Under the pieces are notes generated by a model, which was not told the origin of the DNA, ran no database searches, and was given only the letters and a program-made list of their open reading frames with translations. Shown here piece by piece: positions 20,267-23,086 of a DNA stretch of 24,438 nt (its first letter is position 1; each line of letters begins with the position of its first letter). This DNA comes from a virus (taxonomy: Duplodnaviria; Heunggongvirae; Uroviricota; Caudoviricetes): IMG/VR virus record IMGVR_UViG_638341084_000009; one strand, written 5' to 3'. The translations under genes were made by a program, and so were the position numbers.

Positions 20267-20581
20267 TTAGCATTTTTTTGACCGCGCGTTTCCGGACGTA
20301 TTCTGTTCTCCTGTCCCTTTATATCGTCGGAATACCCGCCGCTCTTCAAATCCCATTCCCAACTCAGAATGTAGTCTGTTGACCGCTTGTTTTATTTCGG
20401 TCAGGTTCACCGGTGAAACCGGAGTCCGGCGCGCCTTACGCAAACACTCTGCTCGTTTCTGTGCCGCCACTTTTCTTTTCTGGTCATCACTTAGCTGTAC
20501 CATCACTTTTGCCCATCGTTCAGCTGCTCTCCGGTACAGTCCTTTTTTCTCCAGACATTCTGCCACGTGATCATGTAGCAT
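20267..20581 (-). CDS. PerC-like (Pch-family) putative transcriptional activator, phage moron
   Basis: ATG at 20579-20581 with GGAGG RBS 7 nt upstream. 104 aa, MLHDHVAECLEKKGLYRRAAERWAKVMVQLSDDQKRKVAAQKRAECLRK…; the AE-LE--GL-RRAA-RW--VM N-terminal pattern matches my recollection of the PerC family. Gene is well supported; family assignment is from memory. Confidence 0.55.
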   Translation of the reverse strand: MLHDHVAECLEKKGLYRRAAERWAKVMVQLSDDQKRKVAAQKRAECLRKARRTPVSPVNLTEIKQAVNRLHSELGMGFEERRVFRRYKGTGEQNTSGNARSKKC

Positions 20582-21514: not shown

Positions 21515-21613
21515 TCACCACCAGCGTATCTGACCGATGAAATAACCGGAGGCCATAATCACAAACACCAGCCAGATAAGAATGAACTTCCAGGTGGATA
21601 ATTTTTCAGCCAT
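21515..21613 (-). CDS. Hypothetical 32 aa single-pass membrane peptide, translationally coupled to Rz
   Basis: ATG at 21611-21613 with [41 protein letters not shown] has one hydrophobic helix. Its stop TGA sits 1 nt before the Rz ATG. No homolog recognised from memory, and a short ORF could be fortuitous. Confidence 0.35.
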
Positions 21614-21691
21614 CACTCGAATCTCCCGAATCAGTTTGCTAAAATCAAACACACTTTCTCCTTTGACTTTTCCGGAGTCAGGAAACACAAA

Positions 21692-21723
21692 ACCCCCGCT
21701 TGGTGCCAACAAACGGGGTTTTT
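21692..21723 (+). terminator. Hairpin with T-run in the R to Rz intergenic gap (candidate plus-strand or weak bidirectional terminator)
   Basis: Stem CCCCGCTTG / CAAACGGGG (8 of 9 pairs) with 7 nt loop, followed by TTTTTACTTTT on the plus strand and preceded by an A-rich tract. Confidence 0.35.
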
Positions 21724-21812: not shown

Positions 21813-22346
21813 TTATCTGTCGATACCCCAGCACGCCAGCGCGCTCTCCTGGTCACGACGGGATACCTGACCGTAGCAGTTGTTTGAACGAATACGGCAG
21901 TCTCTGCCACCGTCCTTAATCCACCAGCGAATCGCCTCACACGCTCCCCTGCGATCACCTGCATTAATTCGTTTATAAAACGTCGACGGGAAACACTTAC
22001 CGGGACCAATGTTGTACGGACAGAATGACGCGATCCCCGCTTTCTGGGGTTCGCTCAATGGCACTTTGATGTTTTTCTCCACCCATGCCAGCGCCTTATC
22101 ACGCTCAATGGCGTTGACCTGGTCGCATTTTTCCTTCGACAGTTTCATACCGGGAAAAACGGGTTTTCCATCCACCATCGTGGCCCCCCGACAGATGGTC
22201 CAGATGCCGGAACCATCGCGGTATGCCGTTGTGTGGTTACCCTCTTTTTCGTCCAGAAACTGGTCAAGTATCTGAGGAGCAGACGCGCCTGCAGCAATCA
22301 GCGCCAGAACAGCAGCTGACAGGCCGTATTTGATTTTTGCGCTCAT
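21813..22346 (-). CDS. R: SAR endolysin (phage lysozyme, T4-lysozyme/GH24 type with N-terminal signal-anchor-release domain)
   Basis: 177 aa. N-terminus MSAKIKYGLSAAVLALIAAGASAPQ is a weakly hydrophobic Gly/Ala-rich SAR-type segment. Followed by an E…D/C…T triad region (EGNHTTAYRDGSGIWTICRG) and …RRDQESALACWG, resembling phage 21 R and DLP12 RrrD. Confidence 0.85.
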   Translation of the reverse strand: MSAKIKYGLSAAVLALIAAGASAPQILDQFLDEKEGNHTTAYRDGSGIWTICRGATMVDGKPVFPGMKLSKEKCDQVNAIERDKALAWVEKNIKVPLSEPQKAGIASFCPYNIGPGKCFPSTFYKRINAGDRRGACEAIRWWIKDGGRDCRIRSNNCYGQVSRRDQESALACWGIDR

Positions 22347-22401
22347 GGATATTTATCAGGATGCTACCAATGAAAGATACTGGAAAGCCAACTGCAAAAA
22401 G

Positions 22402-22716
22402 CTAACAACACGTAATCGAGTTATCAGAACTGTTAATTTTTATGGTATTCCGCGCCTCTGAACAGGGGCGCGTTTCTGGCAACAGCTCGTCCTCTTCACA
22501 TAACCCGGCAGCAACATCCAGGAAGACCTGTCTGATGCTCCTTCTGGCTGCTGCCTCATAAAACTCCAGCGCGGCACCTTCAACACGGTCCAGCGAGATG
22601 TCCAGGTCAAAAATTTCACCGTCAAAGCGTTTTTTGTCCCGTAACGCTAAAGTTACCGTAACTTTATTCTCAAAATTGCGGATCCCTTTCACAATCAGTT
22701 CATAGTTTTGAGTCAT
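22402..22716 (-). CDS. YdfR-like protein (DUF1327-like) of unknown function, inserted between holin and endolysin
   Basis: 104 aa, MTQNYELIVKGIRNFENKVTVTLALRDKKRFDGEIFDLDISLDRVEGAALEFYEAAARRSIRQVFLDVAAGL…. Strong GGGGAGAG RBS, 4 nt after the holin stop. No predicted TM segment. Same location as ydfR in E. coli Qin (essQ-ydfR-rrrQ), as I recall it. Confidence 0.65.
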   Translation of the reverse strand: MTQNYELIVKGIRNFENKVTVTLALRDKKRFDGEIFDLDISLDRVEGAALEFYEAAARRSIRQVFLDVAAGLCEEDELLPETRPCSEARNTIKINSSDNSITCC

Positions 22717-22720
22717 TGAA

Positions 22721-22936
22721 TTACTCTCCCCGTGCAGCCTTACGACGGTCCTCTCTGATTTTGAAATACAGGTTAGTCAGATATGTCAGCAGCCCAAACA
22801 GCAGACTCCCCAGCACGCCTATTGCCGCCCACTGAGACGGGGAAACCCTGTCCAGCAACTGCAGGAACCAGTAGCCCGTTCCCACCGCTGACGTGGTGTA
22901 TGACACACCTGTTGTGATTTTTTCCATCTGGTACAT
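22721..22936 (-). CDS. S: Class II pinholin (S21-like) with dual-start motif
   Basis: [71 protein letters not shown], nearly colinear with phage 21 S21 as I recall it. Met1-Tyr-Gln-Met4 gives the antiholin/holin dual starts at 22936 and 22927. The ORF-track start at 23014 is an upstream over-extension. Confidence 0.85.
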
Positions 22937-22971: not shown

Positions 22972-23002
22972 AAAAAAAGCCACCAGTTAAGTACTGATGG
23001 CT
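22972..23002 (-). terminator. Rho-independent terminator on the late (minus) strand between the esterase gene and S
   Basis: Minus-strand stem AGCCATCAG / CTGGTGGCT (8 of 9 pairs, 7 nt loop) followed by TTTTTTT. An A-run precedes it on the plus strand. Confidence 0.55.
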
Positions 23003-23086
23003 CTGATAACTCATGCAGGCATCTCAGACGACCCACTGACACTACCGGTGAGTTTAACGATACCTTCCATTTGACTGGCTCACTTT

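Follow-up and report, generated by a model that had tools for sequence, protein, structure and literature searches.

A YdfR-family (DUF1327) gene between the holin and endolysin genes of a tailed phage: a likely moron-type insertion with a possible link to RNase E

Lambdoid phages carry morons, which are add-on genes in the sense of Hendrix, and bor and lom of phage lambda are examples of them. Other phages have a small soluble protein beside the holin, such as RIII of T4 and LydB of P1, which are soluble or cytoplasmic antiholins or lysis-timing factors. Besides, small phage proteins can be directed at the host RNase E: Srd of T4 binds the N-terminal half of RNase E and stimulates decay (PMC13232886), and Dip of phiKZ blocks RNA-binding sites in the RNase E scaffold (PMC4980113). 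Here we describe a YdfR-family (DUF1327) gene on the minus strand (positions 22402-22716) of a 24,438-nucleotide stretch from a virus of the Caudoviricetes (IMG/VR record IMGVR_UViG_638341084_000009), which is called the window below. The gene lies between an S21-type holin gene (S) and an R21-type lysozyme gene (R), and we propose that the YdfR/DUF1327 cassette would sit in the S-R junction of this lysis cassette as a moron, outside the lysis machinery.

The gene has an ATG start, 104 codons and a stop. It starts 4 nucleotides (nt) past the holin stop, with TTCA between them, and its own stop lies 55 nt before the endolysin ATG. The maximum of the Kyte-Doolittle profile is 0.69 (19-residue window). 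The size, solubility and spacing given in an initial annotation, which was made from the letters of the window, were right. That annotation also named YdfR/DUF1327 as the family, and a hidden Markov model search bore this out: Pfam DUF1327 (PF07041) matched residues 1-79 at profile positions 1-79 of 93 with 130.5 bits (E=2.8e-38), where the gathering threshold used as cut-off is 25 bits. The match to phrog_2735 extends over the full protein length (E=9e-54). K-12 YdfR is 79% identical and 95% similar to the window protein over residues 1-77 and unrelated beyond, and the Qin order essQ-ydfR-rrrQ given in the annotation was correct as well. In total, five PHROG families were matched, with profile lengths from 105 to 296, which have the first 77-104 residues of the window protein in common and are all labelled "unknown function". 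The gene had no match in NCBIfam, PADLOC or Rfam, and among solved and viral proteins nothing matched significantly, whether by structure or by sequence. Two hits of the PDB searches were treated as chance, namely the YpeB PepSY domain (263-residue Stx1_699 form as query, E=0.025) and eL18 (family profile as query, E=0.57).

The anatomy of the insertion is seen best by comparison with VT2-Sakai, in which the holin is 98.6% and the endolysin 93.8% identical to those of the window and DUF1327 is absent. The VT2-Sakai endolysin ATG lies 4 nt past the S stop, which is exactly the site of the DUF1327 start in the window, and it follows the same Shine-Dalgarno-like (SD-like) sequence GGGGAGAG (GGGGAGAGTAAGCTGATG). 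Since S and R are adjacent there with the same 4-nt junction, the DUF1327 gene is an insertion that captured the S-R junction. In the window this junction (22717-22732, minus strand) consists of the SD-like GGGGAGAG in the last holin codons, the TAA stop of the holin and the TTCA spacer; the GGAG core ends 9 nt and the purine run 7 nt before the DUF1327 ATG. The ribosome-binding site which the initial annotation placed ahead of the gene is therefore found inside the end of the holin gene. By our reading, the insertion would have taken over this ribosome-binding site at the holin 3' end, which otherwise serves the endolysin, and the endolysin would consequently stand behind a spacer without a Shine-Dalgarno sequence. 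Indeed, none was found in the 55-nt spacer ahead of the window endolysin (22347-22401, minus strand), which is AT-rich with 38% G+C.

Base composition also sets the insert apart, with 46.7% G+C in the DUF1327 gene and 38% in the spacer versus 53-55% in S, R and Rz. The locus thus agrees with morons in two respects, that is, an insertion between genes adjacent in related phages and an atypical base composition. A consensus scan found no promoter-like or terminator-like site flanking 22402-22716; co-transcription with the lysis genes, as the initial annotation proposed, is therefore plausible. The last approximately 14 nt of the spacer, CCTGATAAATATCC (22347-22360), are common to all the DUF1327-bearing cassettes compared (mEp460, BP-4795 and Stx1_699). 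VT2-Sakai lacks them, and its R gene relies on the GGGGAGAG within the holin gene; the cassettes with the insert may therefore differ in how endolysin translation is controlled. We also considered whether the conserved motif CCTGATAAATATCC contains a plus-strand promoter, but dropped the idea, which found no support in the consensus scan or on visual inspection.

The lysis genes on both sides belong to well-known families and are context here, outside the proposed moron. The holin gene (22721-22936, minus strand) has 71 codons when counted from the MYQMEK start, with longer upstream starts possible, and its product is an S21-type class II holin by its Pfam match (Phage_holin_2_1, "P21 holin S", E=9e-33). 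The R21-type lysozyme gene (21813-22346, minus strand) matches Pfam Phage_lysozyme (E=2e-24), and the Ala/Gly-rich hydrophobic N-terminus of its product is consistent with a signal-anchor-release (SAR) endolysin. By homology, the endolysin would show SAR behaviour and the holin pinholin behaviour. A start 4 nt past the end of an S21-type holin gene, with a lysozyme gene downstream, is found in the window, mEp460, BP-4795, Stx1_699, Stx2_EH2201, K-12 Qin and CFT073, and all 9 phage records which appear in both the holin and the DUF1327 lists have the same 7-nt offset between the tblastn matches.

To see how closely the gene is tied to lysis, we compared the occurrence and divergence of DUF1327 with those of S and R. 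About 427 phage records contain this holin type and 101 contain DUF1327, that is, about three quarters of the holin records lack the gene. The identities to the window differ strongly from gene to gene. In BP-4795 they are 95.8% for S, 54.7% for the DUF1327 domain and 93.2% for R; in mEp460 they are 80.3%, 97.3% and 96.0%, respectively; and VT2-Sakai, with the values given above for S and R, has no DUF1327 domain at all. DUF1327 alleles which are only 51-55% identical are paired with S proteins which are 92-96% identical, and the reverse also occurs. The divergence of DUF1327 is uncoupled from that of S and R.

The distant homologues, 72-76 residues long and coming from Yersinia, Pantoea and metagenomes, occupy a variety of late-operon sites. 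The cassette lies before gpM (locus L004), at the M-L junction (L009, L014, L032 and L033), at the L-K junction (L005-8), at the I-J junction (L026, L028 and L031), directly after Rz (L029), or between Q and holins of other families (L010, L012 and L034); in Pantoea, one of these holins is of lambda-S type and accompanied by a GH19 endolysin. The S-R placement would accordingly characterise the cassette in its Escherichia lineage and not the family as a whole.

A small gene on the opposite strand adjoins the DUF1327 gene in all 12 of the distant proteins that were looked up, either 12-50 nt from the DUF1327 stop or overlapping the DUF1327 gene. The partners belong to recurring families, all of unknown function. 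Those of phrog_25324 are about 100 residues long and 65-76% identical to each other, while the DUF1327 alleles paired with them are only 43-54% identical; those of phrog_18578 have 182 and 186 residues and are 42% identical, and further partners are small helical proteins of 70-93 residues. None of the partners and longer DUF1327 variants that were scanned against PADLOC gave a credible match. E. coli CFT073 shows the same layout, in which essQ and ydfR are followed by an opposite-strand gene for an 86-residue phrog_2572 protein (E=1e-53) and then by rrrQ. This partner occurs in 8 phage records, and in 5 of the 5 that are also in the DUF1327 list its gene directly follows DUF1327 and has the opposite orientation. 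The helical protein of 86-88 residues in CFT073 (L030, 1700-1960, minus strand) and in a second locus (L017, 3500-3766, minus strand) is WP_001306174.1 (phrog_2572); its gene overlaps the 3' end of a long (183-residue) YdfR frame, and the Prokaryotic Genome Annotation Pipeline (PGAP) calls YdfR there "partial".

The mobility of the pair is clearest in Yersinia enterocolitica prophages, where an identical 72-residue DUF1327 protein is encoded in a 755-nt block (97% identical) at two different tail junctions. The block stands at gpI-gpJ in one prophage (L031, 4971-5725) and at gpM-gpL in others (L032), and the flanks are unrelated, which indicates that the pair moves as a unit. Its G+C content is 38.5%, versus 42-47% in the flanks. 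It contains the DUF1327 gene, a GC-rich hairpin, an opposite-strand gene for a 99-residue phrog_25324 protein, and about 175 nt ending in a second hairpin. The hairpin between the two genes, GCGGCGAAATCGCCGC, is absent in the window. From gene order and shared blocks, the DUF1327 family can be described as the forward gene of a mobile convergent cassette found at many late-operon junctions. The complete cassette would be a convergent pair, in which DUF1327 has the direction of the late operon and faces a small gene whose family varies.

In the window, there is no small opposite-strand gene 3' of DUF1327 and no plus-strand open reading frame (ORF) of note in the 55 nt, so the window holds a reduced copy without partner. 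Positions 22363-22446 of the window have no counterpart in the fuller CFT073 cassette, and homology resumes 16 nt before the endolysin ATG. The K-12 copy is also without partner, and most E. coli copies seem to be so when judged by protein length, because the forms of 103-116 residues dominate the family member counts. Only the forward gene would thus survive in the window, with a conserved acidic domain of 75 residues and an unconserved tail of 29 residues. It appears that neither the mobile convergent cassette nor the truncation of the window copy has been described before.

The conserved N-terminal domain (residues 1-75; 22492-22716, minus strand) is acidic and consists of three antiparallel strands followed by one long helix. 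The structure prediction suggested in the initial annotation gave a confident model of this domain: AlphaFold2 with a diverse alignment reached a mean predicted local distance difference test score (pLDDT) of 85.8, with strands at residues 5-14, 18-27 and 34-43 and a helix at 50-77. Among 23 sequences from Escherichia, Yersinia, Pantoea and metagenomes, the invariant residues are G33, E34, I35, G47, Y53, E54, A57, A69 and L72 (numbering of the window protein), and all of them are present in the window protein. The protein has no hydrophobic segment, and its isoelectric point (pI) is 4.76 as a whole and 4.78 for the N-domain; acidity is family-wide, with pI values of 4.6-5.6. The ratio of non-synonymous to synonymous substitution rates (dN/dS) of the N-domain is 0.24-0.30 against the K-12 and BP-4795 alleles, with dS of 0.4-1.6, which points to purifying selection on this domain.

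The C-terminal tail is different (residues 76-104 and the stop; 22402-22491, minus strand). It is variable and modelled with low confidence (pLDDT 47-61), and between the window and mEp460 it carries 3 non-synonymous and 0 synonymous changes, as compared with 1 change in the N-domain. Homologues continue after the common residues 1-75 with at least five kinds of tails, unrelated or longer, leading to proteins of 103 (K-12), 104 (window), 114/116, 161, 176, 206 and 263/287 residues. The 161- and 176-residue forms have a helical extension, and the 206-residue form has a second domain. The window tail reads as the start of the 161-residue form (P0008), and the K-12 tail as that of the 206-residue form (P0122, L021). 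The window tail looks like a truncated linker. The distant homologues are the domain alone, with 72-76 residues, and one protein has two domains in tandem.

One of the long forms is ambiguous. In the Stx1a phage Stx1_699 (L003, 3041-3742, minus strand), an opposite-strand ORF of 233 codons overlaps the last 84 codons of the annotated 263-residue DUF1327 protein and takes up the space ahead of the endolysin gene. This ORF has only identical copies, in 8 Shiga toxin (Stx) phages, and no match in Pfam or PHROGs. Either the C-terminal third of the 263-residue protein or the 233-codon ORF may be an antisense artefact; the ORF may also be considered a candidate convergent partner in E. coli.

The family is tiny and of narrow taxonomic range. 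The DNA of the gene is 100% identical in two RefSeq E. coli genomes, in which the gene is annotated as "DUF1327 domain-containing protein", and E. coli O111:H2 strain 12A is 100% identical over the queried 379-nt stretch (22347-22725). Some match to the region exists in about two thirds of the complete E. coli genomes (3641 of 5426), and the gene is one of the most widespread E. coli prophage genes of unknown function. The family comprises 251 clusters among 5.8 billion proteins, and 73 clusters when a set of 1.84 billion proteins is grouped at 50% identity. Among 185,579 species-representative genomes, loci were found only in Escherichia and in two evidently mis-binned contigs of metagenome-assembled genomes; a distant branch of the family occurs in Yersinia and Pantoea. 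The two contigs, labelled Veillonella parvula and Bacillota bacterium (L019 and L021), contain E. coli-type holin and lysozyme genes alongside, and they are almost certainly mis-binned Escherichia prophage contigs. The gene itself is a known, already annotated family member and its novelty is therefore low; what is new lies in the comparative picture.

The only experimental lead to function comes from a study with a bacterial two-hybrid screen, in which a YdfR(1-72) fragment was recovered three times (Gopel et al., RNA Biol 2026; PMC13232886). The fragment interacts with RNase E constructs that hold the catalytic half, Rne(1-597), chromosomal Rne(1-598)-FLAG co-elutes with Strep-YdfR, and RNA co-purifies with YdfR (PMC13232886). 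In the same study, ydfR is silent in normal growth, and its overexpression is non-toxic, with no growth or lysis phenotype (PMC13232886). As neither catalytic nor membrane features are seen in the DUF1327 protein, binding is its most likely mode of action. The best-supported target would be host RNase E, in the catalytic N-terminal half to which the 79%-identical K-12 YdfR domain binds, and the protein would be made late in lytic growth and modulate RNA decay, for instance the stability of the phage's long late transcript. An envelope-integrity role was also considered and not adopted: PMC13232886 cites Paradis-Bleau 2014 for ydfR, and the main text of that paper does not contain ydfR. A kan-cassette insertion upstream of rrrQ could, we infer, cause leakiness by itself.

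How far these observations carry has to be weighed against other readings, and the most obvious of them is a lysis regulator, which the initial annotation had read from the placement of the gene. The cytoplasmic protein, made together with S and R, would then tune pinholin triggering or SAR-endolysin release, maybe as a soluble antiholin. The invariant place right after the holin stop in every Escherichia phage or prophage examined, the shared holin-embedded ribosome-binding site and the 4-nt overlap of ydfR with rrrQ in K-12 would all suit such a role, and so would the distant cassettes near lysis genes (L010 and L012 upstream of holins, L034 between Q and holin, L029 after Rz). However, the comparisons do not support it. 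The gene is missing from about three quarters of the holin records, including VT2-Sakai with near-identical S and R, its alleles diverge independently of S in both directions, and most distant homologues lie among tail genes or beside lambda-S-type, holin_8 or holin_2_3 holins and GH19 endolysins. Family-wide linkage to one holin-endolysin system and co-variation with it, as expected of an antiholin or lysis-timing factor, were not seen; the protein has no membrane segment, and YdfR overexpression was without effect on growth or lysis (PMC13232886). We regard a lysis regulator as improbable, and consider it likely that the gene is a moron-type accessory gene and not a dedicated lysis component. 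On equally low terms we place another idea, that the gene is a functionless remnant with an effect in cis only, that is, decaying cargo which separates R from the holin ribosome-binding site and so lowers or uncouples endolysin translation. It would account for the unconserved tail, seemingly truncated in comparison with the 161-287-residue forms, for the many frameshifted or fused variants in databases, for the copies flagged as partial by PGAP and for the window endolysin without a Shine-Dalgarno sequence. But the N-domain is intact and shows purifying selection in allele comparisons that reach a dS of about 1.6, functional phages that form plaques, for example mEp460 and BP-4795, have kept the gene, and stand-alone versions of 72-76 residues are the norm in other genera, so that a short form is not degenerate in itself.

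The convergent partner suggests yet another explanation, in which late DUF1327 neutralises a partner expressed in the lysogen as a toxin, exclusion or defence factor, and the window gene would be an orphan antidote after deletion of the partner. The partner in 12 of 12 distant proteins and in CFT073-type E. coli cassettes agrees with this, as do the partner families that travel with diverged DUF1327 alleles, the movement of the pair as one block and the finding of the 86-residue E. coli partner only in phage records which also hold DUF1327. On the other hand, most E. coli copies, the window and K-12 included, are without partner and still have an intact N-domain with dN/dS of about 0.25, which suggests a role independent of the partner. 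Moreover, it would be odd for one specific antidote to meet partners from four or more unrelated families, and the partners carry no PADLOC, Pfam or toxin signatures. We think this explanation unlikely, and the same holds for a broader and more speculative version, in which DUF1327 would be the constant, late-expressed half of a mobile two-gene conflict module carried by lambdoid phages of Enterobacterales. The lysogen would express the reverse gene as a toxin or exclusion factor, and the forward protein, made when late transcription sets in, would either rewire host RNase E or counteract the reverse gene product; the window copy would keep the RNase E-directed activity only.

The combination which we prefer, a moron-type accessory gene whose product acts on RNase E, is put forward tentatively, at somewhat less than even chances as a whole; within it, the step that the protein acts through RNase E is possible but rather doubtful, the binding being taken from the literature and the physiological role inferred. 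The reality of the gene, its family membership, the anatomy of the insertion, the family's mobility and variable position and the missing coupling to S and R were observed here. Several points weigh against the combination. Where Escherichia phages carry the gene, it always lies at S-R with the invariant 4-nt junction (9 of 9 records), so a lysis-linked role is still allowed in this genus. One classical hallmark of a moron is absent, since no own promoter or terminator was found in the window. Besides, the RNase E link comes from one study with overproduced, tagged K-12 YdfR, in which full-length YdfR scored only with Rne(1-597) and overexpression altered very few transcripts (PMC13232886). 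The co-purification was carried out without nuclease treatment, so that RNA could bridge YdfR and RNase E (PMC13232886), and direct RNA binding is unlikely, as an acidic protein would be an odd direct RNA binder.

The surroundings of the lysis genes contain further features. Downstream of the endolysin gene lie a small ORF for a membrane protein, the Rz/Rz1 genes and a homologue of PerC. The small ORF (21515-21712, minus strand) fills the gap between endolysin and Rz, and its stop abuts the Rz start; its last 45 residues, hydrophobic stretch included, match phrog_6632 (unknown function, E=2e-29). In BP-4795 and VT2-Sakai the same slot between R and Rz contains "ant" and a small ORF. The slot is thus a second variable insertion site of this lysis cassette. 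The coding strand has two terminator-like hairpins with T-runs, one shortly before the holin gene (22976-23004, minus strand) and the other right behind the endolysin gene (21694-21718, minus strand); presumably, Q-modified polymerase reads through both. The gene at 20267-20581 (minus strand), downstream of Rz/Rz1, encodes a homologue of PerC-family transcriptional activators (Pfam PerC, E=4e-44), which is a moron of virulence-regulator type, typical of prophages of enteropathogenic and enterohaemorrhagic E. coli. A truncation of nanS-p was suspected at one point; the gene merely runs past the window end.

In a wider sense, the locus cautions against reading the function of a gene from its position in a lysis cassette. 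Very few protein ligands of the catalytic half of RNase E are known, and a recent report links the conserved YdfR domain to it, which makes the function of the family testable. A late-expressed RNase E modulator of temperate phages would, if true, be something new in the biology of Stx and other lambdoid phages.

Compared with described systems, the DUF1327 gene resembles lambdoid morons in its place between normally adjacent genes, its lower G+C content, the varied late-operon junctions and the discrete Yersinia block with a hairpin, and it differs from them in that an own promoter and terminator are undetectable and the opposite-strand gene is missing in the window. Lambda bor reads against the late operon, as does one gene of the DUF1327 cassette; we know of no described moron class with a convergent layout of a constant forward and a variable reverse gene. 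Like T4 RIII and P1 LydB, the DUF1327 product is a small soluble protein beside the holin, but in contrast to them its family is not tied to a single type of holin, S21/R21 cassettes can do without it, and it does not co-vary with S or R; homology to the two was not seen in Pfam or PHROGs. K-12 YdfR (b1555, Qin prophage, annotated as "YdfR family protein") is similar to the window gene in lying 4 nt past an S21-type holin gene and upstream of a lysozyme gene, and in its conserved domain, of which residues 1-72 are reported to bind RNase E (PMC13232886); in contrast, its C-terminal 27-29 residues are unrelated, and ydfR overlaps rrrQ by 4 nt where the window has a 55-nt spacer. As small phage-encoded cytoplasmic proteins reported to bind RNase E, T4 Srd and phiKZ Dip are comparable to YdfR, and Srd, like YdfR, binds the N-terminal catalytic half (PMC13232886), a likeness in target. 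Unlike Srd and Dip, DUF1327 is not an early gene and belongs to the late operon of temperate phages.

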